Notes under the pieces: model-generated
What the model saw: the letters and a program-made list of their open reading frames with translations, nothing else
Database searches by the model: none
Told to the model about the DNA's origin: nothing
DNA from: Escherichia phage F13
DNA: 64,000 nucleotides
Reading direction: 5' to 3' (one strand)
Sequence record: OP745617
Part shown: in pieces, positions 16,233 through 26,429 of the stretch
Layout of the letters: each line of letters starts with the position of its first letter
How positions within the stretch are numbered: position 1 is the first letter of the stretch
Made by a program: the position numbers and the translations under genes

Positions 16233-17693
16233 ATGAATAAAATATTAACACATAATTGGAAATTCATGTACCAGTTGAATCCTGCTTTAAAAGAAGTCTG
16301 GAAGACAAAAGCGCGATACAAAGTAATATACGGCGGTCGTGCATCTTCCAAATCGCACGATGCCGCTGGTTTTGCTATTTATTTGGCGGCAAACTTCAAA
16401 TTAAAATTCCTTTGCGTTCGACAATTCCAGAACAAAATTTCTGAATCTGTATATACTCTATTAAAAGACAAAATAGAGATTTCTGATTTCAAAGATGAGT
16501 TCAATTTATTAAAGAACTCTATTGAACATAAAAGAACTAAATCTGAATTTCTATTTTACGGTATCGCACGTAACGTTGATGAAATTAAATCAACAGAAGG
16601 TGTTGACGTCCTTTGGCTGGAAGAAGCGCACGCGCTTACTGAAGAACAGTGGGACATTATTGAGCCGACAATCCGTAAAGAAGGGTCCGAAATATGGATC
16701 ATCTTTAACCCCGATGAAGAGGCCGATTTTGTCTACCAAAACTTTGTTATGCGACCGCCGAAGAATGCCATTGTTAAAAAGATAAACTGGCAAGACAATC
16801 CATTTTTGTCGCAAACGATGCTGGACGTTATTGCAGGCATGTACGAGCGCGACCCGAAAAAGGCAGAGCACGTTTATGGCGGCGTGCCGAAGACTGGCGG
16901 CGATAAATCTGTAATCAACCGCGCATTCGTTAAGGCCGCGCTTAATCTCCACAAACACCCTACGCTGGGATGGAGTTTGTCAGGGTCTAACCGTATAGGC
17001 TTTGACGTAGCGGACGATGGCGACGACCTTAACGCCACTGCATTCGTTACAGGAAACGTATTGCGCGGCATCAAGACATGGGAAGGTCTGGAAGATGAAT
17101 TGTTAAAATCGGCAAGCGGAGTTTGGAAAGATGCGCTTACATTTGGCGCTTCTATAACTTATGACGCCATCGGTGTCGGCGCTTTTGCTGGTTCAAAATT
17201 TGATGAACTGAACGAGTATGCAATACATGAAAATCCATCATTTCCAAGAATCGAATTTAATGCGTTCAATGCGCAAGGGTCTGTTGATGATCCTGATGAC
17301 GTTTTTCTTGAATTACCACACGTTGAAATACTCAATAAAGACCATTTCGCAAACATAAAAGCGCAAAAGTGGACTGAAATTGCAGAGAGATTCAGAAAGA
17401 CATACGAATATGCAACTGGGCAAGCCGTATATCCGACTGATGAGTTGATTTCAATCGACACCGATGGCATACCAGAACTTGGAATTCCAGCTTGGACTAC
17501 TGAAGAGATTGAGACGTTTCTTTTTGAGATGTCAGCGCCGCGCAAAGATACGTCTGTTCTTGGCAAGTTCAAAGTTGAATCTAAAAAGGATATGGCAAAG
17601 CGTGGAGTCAAATCACCTAACAAAGCGGACGCGGCAATCATGGCATTAATGAAACCAATCGTTGCAGCATCCGGCTTCTTCTCTAACCTTTAA
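16233..17693 (+). CDS. terminase large subunit
   Basis: 486 aa; N-terminal ATPase motif KVIYGGRASSKSHDAAGF; position upstream of portal. Confidence 0.85.
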   Translation: MNKILTHNWKFMYQLNPALKEVWKTKARYKVIYGGRASSKSHDAAGFAIYLAANFKLKFLCVRQFQNKISESVYTLLKDKIEISDFKDEFNLLKNSIEHKRTKSEFLFYGIARNVDEIKSTEGVDVLWLEEAHALTEEQWDIIEPTIRKEGSEIWIIFNPDEEADFVYQNFVMRPPKNAIVKKINWQDNPFLSQTMLDVIAGMYERDPKKAEHVYGGVPKTGGDKSVINRAFVKAALNLHKHPTLGWSLSGSNRIGFDVADDGDDLNATAFVTGNVLRGIKTWEGLEDELLKSASGVWKDALTFGASITYDAIGVGAFAGSKFDELNEYAIHENPSFPRIEFNAFNAQGSVDDPDDVFLELPHVEILNKDHFANIKAQKWTEIAERFRKTYEYATGQAVYPTDELISIDTDGIPELGIPAWTTEEIETFLFEMSAPRKDTSVLGKFKVESKKDMAKRGVKSPNKADAAIMALMKPIVAASGFFSNL

Positions 17694-17696
17694 CAA

Positions 17697-17936
17697 TCAA
17701 AGCATTCCGTGCTGAAGGTCTAGTTTTCTTGCAGCAAATGACCTGGCACGGAATCGCTTACCCGCCCTTACTGCCTGCCGAATCTTCTTTTGCATACACT
17801 TACGGTCAAAATCGTTGCGGTCAACGGCTTCGAGTAAATCCCGACGCAAAGCACCTAGTGTCGCCTTTTCGGATAATTCTACGCCCAGCGCGGCTGCAAC
17901 GTCTTTCAAAACATCGAGTTCGGTTAACGTTCTCAT
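17697..17936 (-). CDS. hypothetical protein (79 aa), possible Rho-N-like domain
   Basis: LTELDVLKDVAAALGVELSEKATLGALRRDLLEAV resembles Rho N-terminal/SAP-like motifs. Confidence 0.35.
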   Translation of the reverse strand: MRTLTELDVLKDVAAALGVELSEKATLGALRRDLLEAVDRNDFDRKCMQKKIRQAVRAGKRFRARSFAARKLDLQHGML

Positions 17937-18349
17937 TTGATAATCCCCTTGATGTCTGATTCTGCCATAAAGATTGGAGTGCCGCCGCCAGGAACAATCG
18001 AGCGCGTTACTTTGTCGAACATATCGTTTTCTTCAACTTGAATACGATAAAATTTATTCTTGGATGAAGATGGGCACAATTCCATAAATTTACCAATGCC
18101 GCGAACGCATTCATCTTCAAAGTATACTGTTTCACCTTGAATGGATTCGATGTTTTCAACCGGATACACCTTGCGACCTAAAAGCCATTCATCCATGGTC
18201 GCCTGCAACACGCTTCTCGCATCCAAAATCCAAGGGTCAACTGTGGCACCTTCATATCGCGCAGCAGTGGCTTTTGCCAGCTCTTCATATTCGCATACGT
18301 TTACTACTTCGCCTTGATGAAGGACGACAAATACAATTGTTGTGCTCAT
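17933..18349 (-). CDS. hypothetical protein (138 aa)
   Basis: ORF between terminase and portal on the opposite strand. Confidence 0.45.
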   Translation of the reverse strand: MSTTIVFVVLHQGEVVNVCEYEELAKATAARYEGATVDPWILDARSVLQATMDEWLLGRKVYPVENIESIQGETVYFEDECVRGIGKFMELCPSSSKNKFYRIQVEENDMFDKVTRSIVPGGGTPIFMAESDIKGIIK

Positions 18350-18511
18350 TTCAATCTCCTTTCGTTTGGTTAACTAAAATATAACTCAAAATGATACAAA
18401 AGCAAAATATTTTATGAACTATTTATGATTACTATACATATCATTTGCTTACAAACACATGAATATTTATAATATAGATTGATTCCCTTTCACTGTCAGG
18501 TGGCGTTAACA

Positions 18512-20887
18512 ATGAAAATTCTTGGCATAAAACTCTGGGAGAAGACGCGACCAGAAGCCGAACCAGCGGAGATGCCGCCAGGCGACCCATTGGCACCGTT
18601 TGAACGCCTTGAAAGGCGCGGCAGCGGTCAACGCTGGGAAAAGACTGAAAGCAATCGACCGACCTTTAAAACGGTTGATGACTTCCCTTTATATGAGCCT
18701 GATATTAACGGGGACGGTGTTGCAATCATCAAAGGTCGCTCAGTAGATTCAGCAACCGTATCCAAAAAAGTTATGGATAATGCCTTAAAGAACATCAGTT
18801 CAGAAGGGCAGGTGAATCCATACACAGTGCCTATTCAGTTGCAAAACTGGTACTTATCGCAATCATTTATCGGATATCAAGCTTGCGCCATCATCGCGCA
18901 GCACTGGCTAGTGAACAAGGCTTGTTCCATGGTAGGCCGCGATGCGGTCCGTAAAGGCTGGGAAGTCAAATCCAGTTCTGAGTCGGAATTGTCAGTACAG
19001 GCCAGCGAACGCTTAAAGCAAATTGATAAAGAATTTAACATCAAAGAGCACTTAGTTGAAGCCGAACGATTCAAGAATATTTTTGGCATCCGCGTCATCA
19101 TATTTGATGTGCGCAGTGATGACCCAGAATATTATAGCAAACCTTTTAACATCGATGGTGTGACAAAAGGGTCTTATAAGGGAATCATTCAGGTTGACCC
19201 TTATTGGATGATGCCATTCTTGACGTCTGAAAACACTGCAGACCCTGCGTCACAGCATTTCTATGATCCAGAATACTGGGTGATCAGCGGACAGCGTTAT
19301 CATCGCAGCCACCTAATCATCTTGCGCAACGATGAGCCAGCTGATATTCTCAAGCCGACTTATATCTACGGCGGCATTCCTCTGACTCAGCAGATTTATG
19401 AACGTATCTATGCCGCTGAACGTACCGCTAACGAAGCGCCATTGCTGGCGATGTCTAAGCGTACAACCACGCTTCGGACCGACGTTGACAAGGCGATTGC
19501 CAATGAGCGGTCGTTTGCCGAACGTCTGATGATGTGGATTAAGTACCGCGACAACTATGCAGTCAAAGTGCTTGGTCAGAAAGAAGAGATGGACCAGTTC
19601 GACATCAACTTGTCAGACTTCGACAGCATCATCATGAACCAGTACCAGCTGGTGGCCGCAATCGCAAAAGTTCCGTCGACAAAACTGTTAGGGACGTCAC
19701 CTAAAGGCTTTAACGCCACTGGTGAGTTCGAAATGGTCAGCTATCACGAAGAATTGGAGACTTGTCAACAGCACGATTTGACGAAGATTCTTGACCGCCA
19801 CTATAAAATCCTTTTGAAGTCTGAAGGCGTGGAAGTCGACGTTAAAGTGGCATGGGAGCCAGTTGGTTCACTTACTGCTACTCAGCTTGCAGAGATTAAC
19901 GACAAACGAGCGAATACTGGCAAGACTCTCATTGATGCTGGCGTAATCTCCCCTGATGAAGAGCGCGACCGCATCAAGGACGACAAAAACAGCGGCTACA
20001 ACCGTTTGCCGGAAGATGCAGCAGAAGAAACCCCAGGGATGTCTCCAGAGAATATGGCACTGCTTGGCAAGTCTGCTGGTGAAGTTCTGCAAGGCAAGGC
20101 CGATATTGAACAGGCCAAAGCTGATGTTGTCAAGATGGGCGGCCAGTTCTATAGCGAGACTGGTATTATGCCGGAAGGTGCCGCGCGTGGTGAGTTGGCG
20201 GAAAACCCTGACAGGGCACCAGTTGAGATTAACATGGATGATACCGATGACGAATCAAGCCATCACGTTGATGTCCTAACGCAACTGAAAGAAGGTCTGG
20301 AGGGTATTGCTGACTATTACCTTAAAGAAGGTCAGGACGTGGATTTTGACCCTCAAAAAGATGCAAGGTCGGTGCAACCGTCTACGCTTCCAAGCGTAAA
20401 AGGAAATGTCGTGAACTTGCGACACAATGTAGGGAAGATGGATGCTGCATCGCTGCCTAAGATGAAGTTGCACGGGATGATTCTTGGTATTGAGAATCCT
20501 CGCAACAGCATTCGCAGGGGTAACAGCCTTGATGGTGAATGGGCAGTTAAGATGCCGCACCATTACGGATTTATCAAAGGCACCAAGGGCGCTGATGGTG
20601 ATGAAGTCGACTGCTTTGTTGGACCAAACATGAAGTCGCCTAAAGTATTCATCATTAACCAAAATGATAATTATTCTGGCGAATTTGATGAACACAAGTG
20701 TATGCTTGGATTTGATTCAGCAGAAGAAGCGAAAGAAGCTTATCAGGCGTCATTTGGTAACGGTTGGAACGGATTTGACTCAATCCACGAATTGGATGTA
20801 AACTCATTCAAGGAGTGGTTGAAGGGTGATTGCTCTCAAGCATATGGAGCACTCAACAATCCTACTAATTCACCGAAGCAAGGTTGA
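18512..20887 (+). CDS. portal protein with C-terminal inorganic-pyrophosphatase-like domain
   Basis: 791 aa from ATG 18512; synteny terminase-portal-head morphogenesis; C-terminus YGFIKGTKGADGDEVDCFVGP matches the family I PPase signature and context. Confidence 0.65.
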   Translation: MKILGIKLWEKTRPEAEPAEMPPGDPLAPFERLERRGSGQRWEKTESNRPTFKTVDDFPLYEPDINGDGVAIIKGRSVDSATVSKKVMDNALKNISSEGQVNPYTVPIQLQNWYLSQSFIGYQACAIIAQHWLVNKACSMVGRDAVRKGWEVKSSSESELSVQASERLKQIDKEFNIKEHLVEAERFKNIFGIRVIIFDVRSDDPEYYSKPFNIDGVTKGSYKGIIQVDPYWMMPFLTSENTADPASQHFYDPEYWVISGQRYHRSHLIILRNDEPADILKPTYIYGGIPLTQQIYERIYAAERTANEAPLLAMSKRTTTLRTDVDKAIANERSFAERLMMWIKYRDNYAVKVLGQKEEMDQFDINLSDFDSIIMNQYQLVAAIAKVPSTKLLGTSPKGFNATGEFEMVSYHEELETCQQHDLTKILDRHYKILLKSEGVEVDVKVAWEPVGSLTATQLAEINDKRANTGKTLIDAGVISPDEERDRIKDDKNSGYNRLPEDAAEETPGMSPENMALLGKSAGEVLQGKADIEQAKADVVKMGGQFYSETGIMPEGAARGELAENPDRAPVEINMDDTDDESSHHVDVLTQLKEGLEGIADYYLKEGQDVDFDPQKDARSVQPSTLPSVKGNVVNLRHNVGKMDAASLPKMKLHGMILGIENPRNSIRRGNSLDGEWAVKMPHHYGFIKGTKGADGDEVDCFVGPNMKSPKVFIINQNDNYSGEFDEHKCMLGFDSAEEAKEAYQASFGNGWNGFDSIHELDVNSFKEWLKGDCSQAYGALNNPTNSPKQG

Positions 20888-20888
20888 T

Positions 20889-21740
20889 ATGGCTTTTAAA
20901 GCTTCGAAAAAACGTGAACGCCGCTCACCCGATAGAATCGGGCGCGGCAGTCCGATAATCCCATCCAACGCAATCGCGATGGCCTATCGTCGTGAGATGA
21001 AAGGTCTTTGCTATGCGATGATTGACGACTATCAAGAAGGAATTGCTGAGTGGCTTGAAAAGAAGCAGGTGAAAAAATTCTTTGCGCAAGACTCTGCTGA
21101 TTCAACTTTTCAAACCTTGATGAAGCGACTGCAACTGAAATGGGCAAAAGCTTTCGCCCGTGTCGGGTCAAAGATTGCCGCAGATTTCATCAAGTCAGTT
21201 GAAAAGGGTGCCACTTCTGCTACATTTGCAAGTCTTAAATCTGCAGGAATAGAAGCGCCAAAAGCCACATATAATAAATTCGTTGAGAACACTCTTAAAA
21301 CAAGCGAGACGTTCAACACGACTTTAGTGACTAAGGTTGGCGAGGATATTCACAACAGGGTGTACGAAGCGGTGATGCTTTCGCTGACTTCGCCAGACCC
21401 AGCGCAACAAGGCACGTCCGGTATTCAGGCGGCATTAAGGAATGTAAAACACTTCTCTGCAAAGCGCGTAGACCTTATTGCAAAAGACCAAACGAGCAAA
21501 CTTTATTGCGTATTAAGTGATGAAAGGATGCGACAGAATGGAGTCGAGGAATTTGAGTGGGCGCATTCAGGAGCAGGCAAAGAGCCGCGAATATCGCATG
21601 AGCATGTCGATGGAATGAGATTCAAGCTTGATGACAAACGCTTATGGGAAGTAGGTGGAGAACTTAAGTTCAAAAAGGGTGACATCGGTCCTCCTGGATG
21701 GGCGATACACTGCAAGTGCAGGAAAATACCAATTATCTGA
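20889..21740 (+). CDS. head morphogenesis protein (SPP1 gp7 / Mu F-like)
   Basis: Position after portal; C-terminal HEHVDG...WAIHCKCRK motif. Confidence 0.7.
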   Translation: MAFKASKKRERRSPDRIGRGSPIIPSNAIAMAYRREMKGLCYAMIDDYQEGIAEWLEKKQVKKFFAQDSADSTFQTLMKRLQLKWAKAFARVGSKIAADFIKSVEKGATSATFASLKSAGIEAPKATYNKFVENTLKTSETFNTTLVTKVGEDIHNRVYEAVMLSLTSPDPAQQGTSGIQAALRNVKHFSAKRVDLIAKDQTSKLYCVLSDERMRQNGVEEFEWAHSGAGKEPRISHEHVDGMRFKLDDKRLWEVGGELKFKKGDIGPPGWAIHCKCRKIPII

Positions 21741-21747
21741 GGTCATT

Positions 21748-22668
21748 ATGACGATACCAATCAACACATTCCCTCTATCTGGACAAACTCCAGTCTTGCC
21801 TGCGGTGTATGCTAATGGCTTGGCAATTGTCTCAGAATTCACTTCTGATAAAAACTTGATTGTTCCACTGAGCCCGCCGCTTTCATCAGGGTATAACTCA
21901 GTAGGCCAGTTCTTTATGATTGGCAATGATGGCGATTCGACCAGCAAGCCTAATCTGACATTGTCTGTACCTAAGATGAACATCACCGACGTTCAAACTG
22001 GCTTGACTGCATCAACAATCACCATTGCTTTTGGAGAAGCAGTGATTATAGGAATGGAGTCTGGAGGGTCCAAGAATGCTGTCGCCGTTAAGGTAGTCAA
22101 ATCCAGCGACAACCAATACACTTTACCAGCTGCGACGGCTTCCGTTCTCGGCGGCGTCAAAATAGGAAGCGGAATAAGCGTCGCAGGTGACGGTACAATT
22201 AGCGTAACTCAATACTCATTGCCGATTGCGTCAGCATCTACTTTAGGCGGCGTAAAGGTCGGTACAACTCTATCAATTGATGGTTCCGGTGTGCTTAACG
22301 CAGCAGCAAGCACCGTCCAGAATGCCACGAACAGTGTTAGCAATCCTCCAACCACTTTGGTTAATCTGGCAACCTTAAACCTTCCTGCAGGAAAGTGGCT
22401 TGTGACGGCAAGCCAATTGACCGTTGCAACTGCAGGCATTCAAGCGAATACCGGAATCACTGTAAAATTATCAACAAGCAATTCAGATATTACGGATGAT
22501 GCATTTACCATGTCAGCGGGTATTCGGGCTTCAGGACGTTTTGGCGGTAACGTCCCAACAAAAATGATTACTCTTGCCGCGCCTGGTAATGTGTATCTAA
22601 ACTATCAGTGCACCGATGCGTTAACATCTACCGTTTACGGACAGATCACCGCAATTAAGCTGAACTAA
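21748..22668 (+). CDS. structural protein with internal tandem repeats (fiber or decoration-like)
   Basis: Repeats TLPAATASVLGGVKIGSGISVAGDGTISV / SLPIASASTLGGVKVGTTLSIDGSGVLNA; start at internal ATG 21748. Confidence 0.5.
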   Translation: MTIPINTFPLSGQTPVLPAVYANGLAIVSEFTSDKNLIVPLSPPLSSGYNSVGQFFMIGNDGDSTSKPNLTLSVPKMNITDVQTGLTASTITIAFGEAVIIGMESGGSKNAVAVKVVKSSDNQYTLPAATASVLGGVKIGSGISVAGDGTISVTQYSLPIASASTLGGVKVGTTLSIDGSGVLNAAASTVQNATNSVSNPPTTLVNLATLNLPAGKWLVTASQLTVATAGIQANTGITVKLSTSNSDITDDAFTMSAGIRASGRFGGNVPTKMITLAAPGNVYLNYQCTDALTSTVYGQITAIKLN

Positions 22669-23239: not shown

Positions 23240-24655
23240 ATGCAAACGGCACGCGAAATTGACAAAAATGGATTCTTGACGATTATGGGTTGTCCGATTT
23301 CGTCATTTGGCATTTTTGATTATTCTGCTGGTCAAGTTGGTCTTGATGGTGATCCGAATCGCATCGTAAAAGTCTATCGCCCTGAGTCAGCGGTGAAAGA
23401 CCCCGAAGCGATAGATTCATTCAAAAATATCCCTTTCATCGACAATCACGAAATGCTTTCTGGATTTGAAGGTGATGAGGATAACACAGCACCCGAAGAG
23501 TATGGCGTTGATGGCGTTCTGACTGGCAATGTTTATTATGACAAGCCATGGATGCGCGGCGACCTTAAAGTGTTTAGCCGTCGTCTGAAGAAGGCCATTG
23601 ATTCTGGAAAGGTTGACTTGTCTTTGGGCTATGACTGTGAATTCATCATACAGTCTGGAGAGTTTGACGGGCAGCCGTATGAAGTGGTGCAGACAACTCT
23701 TCGCGGCAACCACATTGCTCTCGTGGACGTTGGTCGAGTACCAGGTGCACGGGTGCTGGATGGTCGTTGCTTTGACCATCTTTGTTTGACGACTGTAACA
23801 CCATCCAACGAGGATTTAGACATGCCAAAACCGTTAAAAGGTAAAGCGCGTGATAATGCTGTTGAACAGCTGAAATCACTGATCCCTGCGCTCGAACAAT
23901 TTCTGAACGAAGAGAGTACTGAAGCTGCTCATCAGGACGAAGTTGAAGTGAAAGCAGAAGAGAAGGACTCAACCGAAAATCGTGAAGAAGTAATGGTTGA
24001 TCCAGAAGTCAAGGCAGAAGCAGAAGAAACCCCAGAAGGTGAAGAGAAGTTTGAAGTTGAAACTGAATCTCACGCTGGCGGCGAACTTCCGCAATTGATC
24101 AGCCAAATCGAAGCACTTATTGCAAAACTGAAAGGTGGCGCGGTAGGTGATGAAGAAGAAGTTGAAGCCGAAGTCAAAGACGAAGAAGAAGTTGAAGTCA
24201 AGGCTGAAGATGTATCACCTTGCGACAAAGCTGAAGATGTGGTTAGCGGCCTGCAAAACAGCAACGTAAAGGGGGCTTCGGTCGAAAAAGATGACAAACC
24301 GACAAAAGCGGCGAAAGCGTCGCCAGGTCCAGCAAAAGGGGAACACTCAATGGCATCTGATTCAGCAGTTGCTGCTTTCTACGCTGATTCTGCTCGTAAG
24401 AATAGCCTCTACCAGCGCCTGTCTAAAGTTGTTGGTGCCTTTGATCATGCAACTATGGACTCCAAGTCCGTAGCGAAATATGGCGCTAAAAAGTTAGGCT
24501 TGAAGTGCGTTGATGGTGCTGAGTTTGACGTGGTGGATAATTATCTGCGCGGCGTTGAGCACGGTCAGAAACAGCGTGTAGTCGCAAAACAAAAGGCCGC
24601 TGCGGATTCTGCAGCAACTGACGAAGCATTTGAAGCTTGGTTGAAAGGGGAATAA
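23240..24655 (+). CDS. scaffolding / prohead protease-like protein with acidic region
   Basis: Position between head morphogenesis and capsid; long Glu-rich stretch (EVEVKAEEKD...EEEVEAEVKDEEEVEVKAED). Confidence 0.5.
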   Translation: MQTAREIDKNGFLTIMGCPISSFGIFDYSAGQVGLDGDPNRIVKVYRPESAVKDPEAIDSFKNIPFIDNHEMLSGFEGDEDNTAPEEYGVDGVLTGNVYYDKPWMRGDLKVFSRRLKKAIDSGKVDLSLGYDCEFIIQSGEFDGQPYEVVQTTLRGNHIALVDVGRVPGARVLDGRCFDHLCLTTVTPSNEDLDMPKPLKGKARDNAVEQLKSLIPALEQFLNEESTEAAHQDEVEVKAEEKDSTENREEVMVDPEVKAEAEETPEGEEKFEVETESHAGGELPQLISQIEALIAKLKGGAVGDEEEVEAEVKDEEEVEVKAEDVSPCDKAEDVVSGLQNSNVKGASVEKDDKPTKAAKASPGPAKGEHSMASDSAVAAFYADSARKNSLYQRLSKVVGAFDHATMDSKSVAKYGAKKLGLKCVDGAEFDVVDNYLRGVEHGQKQRVVAKQKAAADSAATDEAFEAWLKGE

Positions 24656-25289: not shown

Positions 25290-26429
25290 ATGACTCGCAT
25301 TAGCCAAACACACTCTCGCCTCCCAGCGAGCAAGGTGCGCCCTTTTGATATGCAATCTGTTACCGACGCGGCTGTTTCCCAGCTTGCTCGTATCGGTATT
25401 GTGTTTGATTCCGCGATTGTGCGTGATCAGATTGAGCACTTAAACCGTGCAGGCGCTTTCCGCGTAGGTGACGCCGCGTTCACTGCACCGCAGACTACTC
25501 CGTCAATCCCGACCCCGCTGCAGTTCCTGCAGCAGTGGCTGCCTGGCTTCGTCAAAATCATGACCGCTGCTCGTAAAATCGACGAGCTGGTTGGTATTGA
25601 TACCGTTGGTCAGTGGGAAGATGCAGAAATCGTTCAGGGTATCGTTGAACCAGCTGGCACCGCAGTTGAATATGGTGATTTCACCTCTATTCCTCTGGCA
25701 AGCTGGAACGTAAACTTTGAACGTCGTTCTATCGTTCGTGGCGAAATGGGCATGGCAGTTGGTATGCTGGAAGAAGGCCGCGCGTCTGCTATGCGTCTGA
25801 ACTCCGCAGAAACCAAGCGCCAGCAGGCTGCTGTATCTCTGGAAATCATGCGTAACGCAATCGGCTTCTATGGCTGGTACAACGGGAACAACCGCACATT
25901 CGGCTTCCTGAATGATCCAAACCTGCCAGCGGCGATGACTTCCAACACCACTTCCGGCTGGGCTACTGCGACTTTCCAACAGGTAACTGCAGACATCCGT
26001 TTGATGGTTCGTCAAATTCGTGTGAACTCTCAGGACCAGATTGATCCAGAGAAAGTTGACATGACTCTGGCGCTGCCGACTAACTCTATCGATTGGCTGT
26101 CCAACACCACTGACTTCGGTATTTCTGTACGTGACTGGATCACCCAGACCTATCCGAAGATGAAGATCAAATCTGCACCGGAACTCAACGGCGCACTTGG
26201 CAGTGACCCGACTTTCTTGAACGTGGCATACCTGTACGCTGATCACATCGATTCCTCAATCGATGGTTCAAGCGATGATGGTTCCGTATTCAGTCAGCTG
26301 GTTCAAACCAAGTTCATGACTCTGGGCGTTGAAAAGCGTGCTAAGAGCTACGTTGAAGACTACGCAAACGCAACAGCAGGCGTTCTGCTCAAGCGTCCGT
26401 TCGCAGTCGTCCGTATGACTGGCATTTAA
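25290..26429 (+). CDS. major capsid protein
   Basis: 379 aa; position after scaffold; codon usage typical of a highly expressed gene. Confidence 0.65.

Follow-up and report, generated by a model that had tools for sequence, protein, structure and literature searches.

The 64,000-nucleotide (nt) stretch of Escherichia phage F13 analyzed here (sequence record OP745617; hereafter the window) contains a gene for a portal protein whose C terminus carries a domain of the InPase family, related to the family I inorganic pyrophosphatases (PPases). That the protein is built from a portal core, a linker, and a C-terminal InPase domain is almost certain, and we assign a probability of roughly 0.8 to the joint proposal of this identity, this architecture, and a hydrolase tethered inside the capsid. 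The portal would be a dodecamer whose capsid-facing C terminus bears an acidic linker of ~110 residues followed by the InPase domain, a trimmed-down family I PPase homologue with its metal site apparently retained. Twelve tethered copies would thus sit inside the head beside the portal crown, with pyrophosphate (PPi) or a nucleotide-type pyrophosphate as the likely substrate.

The portal-InPase fusion protein

The portal region of the window is 100% identical to that of Escherichia phage vB_EcoM_SP13 (OP352608.1), a Wifcevirus myovirus. The list of open reading frames (ORFs) gives one uninterrupted ORF of 802 amino acids (aa) at 18479..20887 on the + strand. The GenBank annotation places the start at the ATG at 18512, 8 nt downstream of a Shine-Dalgarno sequence (AGGTGG), giving a product of 791 aa to which all residue numbers here refer. 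Its regions are as follows.

18512..20887, + strand: portal-InPase fusion gene, 791 aa plus stop codon; 'portal protein' SP13_023 in OP352608.1
18512..18829, + strand: N-terminal extension, residues 1 to 106; the 8fvh alignment begins at query residue 107
18830..20125, + strand: portal core and C-terminal helical barrel, residues 107 to 538, by homology to the E217 gp19 chain (8fvh)
18875..19915, + strand: Pfam Phage_portal_3 (PF06381), residues 122 to 468, E = 4.5e-88
20126..20455, + strand: acidic linker, residues 539 to 648, fast-evolving and of variable length among relatives
20456..20824, + strand: InPase domain (PF18823), residues 649 to 771, predicted compact oligonucleotide/oligosaccharide-binding (OB) fold, family I pyrophosphatase-like
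20594..20614, + strand: DGDEVDC, PROSITE PPase signature (pattern match), residues 695 to 701
20825..20887, + strand: C-terminal tail, residues 772 to 791, plus stop codon; short and variable, with a predicted local distance difference test score (pLDDT) below 50 in the last 9 residues

Residues 107 to 538 aligned with gp19 of Pseudomonas phage E217 (PDB 8fvh) with an E value of 3.6e-189, and the full protein aligned with the 765-aa chain of gp19 from Pseudomonas phage Pa193 (9b41) with an E value of 2.7e-250, over almost its full length and including the InPase part. In these two Pbunavirus phages, gp19 is dodecameric with its barrel pointing into the head; it is ~51% identical overall to the protein described here, and HHYGFIKGTKGADGDEVDCFVGPN in the InPase part is common to both. 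Homology to structurally proven dodecameric portals and the PF06381 match identify the protein as a portal, and its gene sits in a head-morphogenesis module near the gene for the large terminase subunit. A single PHROG family, phrog_4660 ('minor head protein'), spans the whole architecture on its own (positions 27 to 788 of the 802-aa ORF). The N-terminal extension is weakly conserved, with 17 to 32% identity to relatives.

The C-terminal part matched the Pfam InPase family PF18823 with an E value of 4.4e-46, scoring 156.5 bits against a cutoff of 26.8 and covering profile positions 12 to 135 of 135. A preliminary description of the window had proposed, from the stretch YGFIKGTKGADGDEVDCFVGP, a portal with a C-terminal PPase-like module at 20461..20887. 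That stretch is present, the proposed position agrees with the PF18823 match at 20456..20824, and the fusion itself is borne out by the Pfam match, by the profile alignment to Escherichia coli Ppa, and by a fold search whose best 50 matches are all PPases. The PROSITE family I pattern, D-[SGDN]-D-[PE]-[LIVMF]-D-[LIVMGAC], occurs once in the whole protein (DGDEVDC, residues 695 to 701), against a chance expectation that we estimate from average residue frequencies at ~5e-4 matches per protein of this length. The domain combines the PF18823 profile score and a phage context with a predicted OB-fold core related to family I PPases, conserved acidic residues of the metal site, and, at the sequence level, the absence of a β-hairpin insert. 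Taken alone, the C-terminal part also matched PHROG segments of very large phage proteins, among them DarB-like antirestriction proteins, polyvalent proteins labeled 'endolysin', and virion structural proteins.

A short PROSITE motif by itself might be put down to a chance pattern in a low-complexity portal tail, or the whole arrangement to two genes fused by a frameshift, and the probability of such an artifact is negligible. The chance motif was rejected on the Pfam E value (4e-46), the 50 best fold matches, all of them PPases, and the hhalign match to Ppa. The two-gene artifact was rejected on an ORF that is continuous in 28 Wifcevirus genomes, in 350 phage records, in PDB 9b41, and in Burkholderia phage BcepF1. 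The frameshift for which the preliminary description had allowed is thus absent, and the gene is a single continuous unit represented by one PHROG family and by 350 full-length records.

The preliminary description had also implied that a portal-PPase fusion was new, and on this point it was mistaken. The fusion is already known, belongs to a curated Pfam family, and was published in 2017 by Iyer, Burroughs, Anand, de Souza, and Aravind (PMC5512222; J Bacteriol 199:e00245-17), who gave BcepF1.124 as the example. It was these authors who defined the InPase domain, in phage "polyvalent proteins". They remarked on its four conserved acidic residues and on the lack of the β-hairpin insert (strands 1-2) of all solved PPases, and they treat portal fusions as related simple architectures. 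UniProt likewise labels phage proteins "Inorganic pyrophosphatase domain-containing".

Over residues 20 to 778 here and 29 to 804 there, the present protein and BcepF1.124 (YP_001039808.1, 'minor head protein') are 53% identical, and both have the Phage_portal_3 plus InPase architecture. The head genes of BcepF1 are also similarly ordered: TerL, small ORFs, portal, MuF, further ORFs, protease, structural/cement protein, and major capsid protein. The identity, the shared domains, and the shared neighborhood make the present protein orthologous to the published example, even though BcepF1.124 is longer (862 aa), its linker and C-terminal tail both being more extended, and comes from a Bcepfunavirus rather than a Wifcevirus and from another host. 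Polyvalent proteins contain the same PF18823 family but are by definition polypeptides with several (2 to 15) effector domains delivered with the invading DNA. Here, in place of such a giant carrier of many effectors, the portal serves as carrier, and it joins one structural to one enzymatic domain.

Portal-fused InPase domains also differ from most polyvalent versions at their start, which lies at about profile position 12, without the N-terminal 'QKEAGNYKKGH' motif. Most polyvalent InPase domains open with 'T-E-A-Q-K-E-A-G-N-Y-K-K-G-H' (Pfam profile positions 1 to 11). In the six portal-fused sequences that we aligned, namely, this protein and five metagenomic relatives, that segment is replaced by unrelated sequence (20420..20455, residues 637 to 648 here), which has low pLDDT in the model of this protein.

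Fold and active site of the InPase domain

We modeled residues 637 to 791 with AlphaFold2 from a 13-sequence alignment and obtained a mean pLDDT of 85.6 and a predicted template modeling (TM) score of 0.80. When this model was compared with the PDB using Foldseek, the best 50 matches were all family I PPases, with E values down to 2e-4 and probabilities of ~1.0. Among the predicted viral structures of BFVD, the best match was the portal of Serratia phage MTx (TM score, 0.84), and the name "Inorganic pyrophosphatase domain-containing protein" is already used in this collection for several phage proteins. In the model, the fold is PPase-like yet clearly diverged and is ~50 residues shorter than E. 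coli Ppa. Profile-profile alignment with hhalign matched the domain to E. coli Ppa with 89% probability and an E value of 2.3e-6. The preliminary description had named profile and structure comparison with E. coli Ppa as the way to check its proposal, and both this alignment and the Foldseek result upheld it. The domain has in common with family I PPases (E. coli Ppa; PF00719; PS00387) the OB-fold core and the signature YG[YF]I...DGD[PE]VD.

For the active site, we used an alignment of 159 domain sequences and the E. coli Ppa sequence from strain MG1655. The residues paired as follows.

Metal ligands, this protein to E. coli Ppa (HMMER and hhalign): D695 to D65; D697 to D67; D700 to D70
Other pairs, this protein to E. 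coli Ppa: E661 to E20; R668 to K29; Y685 to Y55; D719 to D97

In a HMMER comparison with the Helicobacter pylori PPase, the FDEHK motif (D726, E727, K729) falls on the D102/K104 strand, and Y744 may correspond to Y141 of E. coli Ppa. The domain thus has counterparts of Ppa E20, K29 (as Arg), Y55, D65, D67, D70, D102 (D726 or E727), and K104 (K729). Among the 159 sequences, E661, R668, Y685, D695, D700, Q717, D726, E727, K729, and Y744 are 99 to 100% conserved, and D697 and H728 reach 94% and 92%, respectively; at every one of these positions our protein has the consensus residue. For the metal ligands the counts are 158/159 (D695), 149/159 (D697), and 159/159 (D700), and the carboxylates E661, D695, D697, D700, D726, and E727 are all present here and 94 to 100% conserved in the family. 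Since the metal-binding carboxylates are kept, the domain is probably an active Mg2+/Mn2+-dependent phosphoanhydride hydrolase, as judged from its sequence.

The domain could instead be a noncatalytic pseudoenzyme with a structural role, such as a plug, a binder of the DNA end or of metal, or a spacer at the portal crown. It is strongly trimmed (~125 aa against 175 in classical PPases), several substrate-binding residues have no clear counterpart, and no density map has yet shown it. However, the carboxylates together with the Arg, Lys, and Tyr residues are nearly invariant in 159 sequences from very different protein contexts, a pattern typical of an active site, and the domain also occurs alone and in effector arrays. 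This near-invariance makes a pseudoenzyme very unlikely.

The region between strand 1 and the YG motif differs in length from that of Ppa, with 24 residues from the strand-1 Glu to the Tyr here (E661 to Y685) against 35 in Ppa (E20 to Y55), and in this sequence-level test hhalign places gaps there. The shorter spacing fits the statement of Iyer and colleagues on the absent β-hairpin insert. In the second half of the domain, hhalign and HMMER differ on the register around FDEHK and on the helix matching SAEEAKEAYQASF. The preliminary description had likened SAEEAKEAYQASF to the C-terminal helix of PPases; the resemblance is visible by eye, but HMMER gives it -2.6 bits, and hhalign matches it, with low confidence, to an earlier Ppa helix. 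Of the Asp/Lys/Tyr metal-ligand set whose conservation it had wanted checked, the Asp cluster, K729, and Y685 are conserved.

Several of these results tell against a PPase-type hydrolase. The TM scores to PPases in the Foldseek search are only 0.4 to 0.5. The classical PPase profile PF00719 scored 18.2 bits on the whole protein and 21.0 bits on the domain alone, below its cutoff of 23.5, and its alignment covers only ~25 residues around the signature; the domain should therefore be called "PPase-like" rather than "a PPase". D719, the D97 equivalent, is Asp in only 56% of family members, and neither hhalign nor HMMER found a confident counterpart of E31, R43, Y51, or K142 in the comparison with E. 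coli Ppa. Given these unmatched residues and the poor conservation of D719, the domain may act on something other than PPi; its metal site appears intact, and its substrate pocket differs from that of a classical PPase. Our literature search on InPase/PF18823 and on pyrophosphatase domains in phage portals and capsids returned only the 2017 computational paper and no enzyme assay of any PF18823 member. There is also a physiological objection. E. coli already has abundant Ppa, and extra PPi hydrolysis would bring no obvious benefit. With the hairpin absent, the PPi-binding residues unmatched, and host Ppa abundant, we lean slightly toward a substrate other than PPi.

What that substrate might be refines the proposal of a tethered hydrolase rather than replacing it. 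Iyer and colleagues (PMC5512222) proposed that InPase domains hydrolyze nucleotide-like molecules made upon infection or clear PPi for early replication and transcription, and they found InPase relatives linked or fused to NUDIX, GNAT, and TmrB-like proteins. A specifically nucleotide-derived substrate (an immune second messenger, an alarmone, or a nucleoside triphosphate), with the domain as a counter-defense effector, draws on those links and on the missing β-hairpin, which takes with it part of the classical PPi-binding site, as the E-to-Y spacing of 24 against 35 reflects. In addition, cryptic prophages provide the host with immunity to which Wifceviruses are sensitive (BASEL paper), so an early counter-defense would be useful. 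The metal-ligand cluster alone, however, does not discriminate between substrates, and we regard this narrower assignment as possible, if on the unlikely side.

Position in the head and fate of the domain

In the E217 portal, the C-terminal barrel points into the head (PMC10329688). Because the portal C terminus faces inward, the linker and the InPase domain must lie inside the capsid. In both the E217 and Pa193 portal structures only residues 94/97 to 528 were modeled, with 'no discernable density' for residues 529 to 765, and neither paper mentions the pyrophosphatase-like domain. The missing cryo-electron microscopy (cryo-EM) density is consistent with a flexibly tethered domain in the capsid interior. 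The linker has a matching character: residues 528 to 650 contain 24 Asp and Glu against 13 Lys and Arg, and 51 of the 123 residues are Gly, Pro, Ser, Ala, Gln, Asn, or Thr. Among diverged relatives, identity is 55 to 65% in the portal core and 48 to 64% in the InPase domain, against 21 to 25%, with many gaps, in the linker. This is the pattern expected of a functional domain on a flexible tether, and residues 539 to 648 probably form one.

The preliminary description had suggested virion mass spectrometry (MS) as a check, and InPase peptides are indeed present in the preparations of phages vB_Eco4M-7 and ECML-117 studied by Necel et al. in 2020 (PMC7048862). The portal gene of vB_Eco4M-7 is 97% identical in nucleotide sequence to the one described here. 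The supplementary peptide tables contain six distinct peptides from the InPase domain, including MPHHYGFIK, LHGMILGIENPR, GADGDEVDCFVGPNMK, and the C-terminal GDCSQAYGALNNPTNSPK (residues 772 to 789), so the very C terminus is present in phage preparations. Peptides of the portal part and of the InPase part were assigned to one protein in the vB_Eco4M-7 virion data, where the peptide-spectrum matches (PSMs), whose counts are not stoichiometries, were distributed as follows.

Residues 1 to 95, N-terminal extension: 40 PSMs
Residues 96 to 500, portal core: 21 PSMs
Residues 501 to 650, barrel and linker: 59 PSMs
Residues 651 to 791, InPase domain: 439 PSMs
All regions: 559 PSMs

These findings point to a real experimental gap, since a common, strongly conserved, MS-detected domain is invisible in two high-resolution cryo-EM studies. 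The N-terminal extension, which is unmodeled in E217 and Pa193 and which the Pa193 authors did not detect by liquid chromatography-MS, was represented by peptides from residues 12 to 32 and 45 to 53 in the vB_Eco4M-7 and ECML-117 preparations.

How far the domain travels is a separate question. It could be capsid-carried cargo like other polyvalent-protein effectors, freed by the head protease and delivered early with the DNA. Action in a newly infected cell would require cutting from the portal, for which the DUF2213 protease encoded three genes downstream is the obvious candidate; its orthologue was detected in the vB_Eco4M-7 preparations as 'capsid maturation protease'. Relatives with an ADP-ribosyltransferase (ART) toxin at the C terminus (see below) argue that the portal C terminus delivers cargo. 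The arrangement resembles that of T4 Alt and of the MuF/gp7-toxin fusions, in which a head-internal enzyme on a structural or targeting partner is proposed to reach the host along with the DNA. For T4 Alt, experiments have demonstrated both packaging and injection; for the InPase domain, we hold release and injection only tentatively, at odds somewhat below even.

Three further points run against delivery from the virion. The whole-sample digests also held nonstructural proteins, for example, a helicase, and the presence of the domain inside virions is accordingly likely but not proven. The peptide list contains only fully tryptic peptides, which give no sign of cleavage from the portal and mean that MS cannot tell whether the domain is still attached. 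Finally, a domain tethered to the portal is unable to leave the capsid.

The enzyme may instead be active and stay on the portal without ever being injected, acting late in infection on free or procapsid portals in the producing cell or else within the capsid, where it might, for instance, handle PPi, polyphosphate, or metal ions close to the end of the packaged DNA. The linker is almost continuously covered by peptides, all of them fully tryptic, the portal itself remains in the capsid, and ghost particles of the PB1-like phage SCUT-S1, after DNA release, still show 59% coverage of the orthologue. The 88.7-kDa species, for its part, is given by database mass only and not by gel. Our own peptide search of one SCUT-S1 file gave no matching peptides. 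Set against an enzyme that never leaves the portal are the thousands of giant polyvalent proteins in which the same domain is interpreted as injected cargo, the ART toxin on the C terminus of relatives, which would be sensible only if it reached the host, and the head maturation protease three genes downstream. We consider permanent attachment possible though somewhat unlikely.

The most far-reaching form of the cargo proposal would have twelve copies, cut free by the DUF2213 protease, exit the capsid together with the DNA or before it, as a first-wave counter-defense enzyme that destroys not PPi but a nucleotide immune signal or alarmone. The portal C terminus would then be a general, swappable cargo platform (InPase, ART, topoisomerase IB) in the PB1/Wifcevirus/BcepF1 clade. 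This combination is speculative and quite unlikely to hold in full. The portal fusion is carried by ~350 sequenced therapeutic-type Pseudomonas and E. coli phages, and the Wifceviruses of the BASEL collection (Bas98-101) now propagate on engineered E. coli K-12 strains, which makes mutant tests of the InPase domain practical. The BASEL paper also refers to a report that Wifceviruses replicate unusually fast, with 3 to 5 min from adsorption to progeny release.

Head module and relatives of the fusion

The head module of the window is ordered as TerL, two small reverse-strand ORFs, portal, MuF, a protein with a head-fiber motif, DUF2213 protease, cement protein, and major capsid protein. Its annotated members around the portal gene are as follows.

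16266..17693, + strand: large terminase subunit (TerL), PF04466, E = 3e-37; annotation
20889..21740, + strand: MuF/SPP1 gp7-like minor capsid (head morphogenesis) protein, PF04233, E = 5e-7; annotation
23240..24655, + strand: DUF2213 head maturation protease/scaffold-like protein, PF09979, E = 4.5e-35; phrog_3778 'head maturation protease', E = 3e-171
25290..26429: major capsid protein

The MuF-like gene begins 2 nt past the portal stop codon. The two small ORFs between the terminase and portal genes (79 and 138 aa; minus strand, 17697..18349) gave no match in a Pfam/family search; BcepF1 likewise has two small genes between its terminase and portal genes, yet there they are co-oriented with the head genes. 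Downstream of the MuF-like gene, the ORF at 21916..22668 contains two copies of 'A(S/T)xLGGVK(I/V)G' and matches the Pfam head fiber family PF11133 (E = 8e-7), and its orthologue, vB_Eco4M-7_38, is abundant in the vB_Eco4M-7 MS data. ARAGORN found no tRNA or transfer-messenger RNA genes in the full 64,000-nt window.

Within the portal gene, an in-frame ATG (M643; region 20425..20440) lies just 5' of the InPase domain, and only 3 nt separate it from an AGGGAAG ahead of it. The corresponding alignment column is Met in four of six portal-fused relatives. Judged from these letters, internal initiation yielding a free InPase protein is conceivable, with poor spacing.

A word-indexed homologue search gave only 12 matches, and the size of the InPase family became visible only in an exhaustive search of 1.84 billion representative proteins, which returned 11,277 clusters with the domain at E values of ≤1e-3. 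Many of these are proteins of 2,000 to 6,400 aa, and the domain is also found as small stand-alone proteins and within effector arrays. The portal family lies upstream of the InPase domain in 5 of the top 150 matches. Among GenBank phages, 350 records contain at least 80% of the full fusion; the carriers are Wifceviruses, ~300 PB1-like Pseudomonas phages, Burkholderia phage Maja, and Xylella phage MATE2. In 28 Wifcevirus genomes the ORF is likewise uninterrupted, with nucleotide identities of 91 to 100%. BcepB1A gp28 and similar proteins are related portals without the C-terminal part.

Two metagenomic relatives extend beyond the InPase domain. P0016 (1191 aa) has an ART exotoxin domain after it (PF03496, E = 3e-17), and P0021 (1106 aa) has a topoisomerase IB (PF01028 and PF21338). 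From these domain arrangements, the portal C terminus seems to be a swappable carrier of effectors. Right after the InPase domain and before the additional modules, the two proteins share a motif, DFKEGDHPRAKNGQFG in P0016 and DFKESEHPRAPNGKFG in P0021, ahead of which the protein described here ends. This motif may be an intermodule linker or a processing site.

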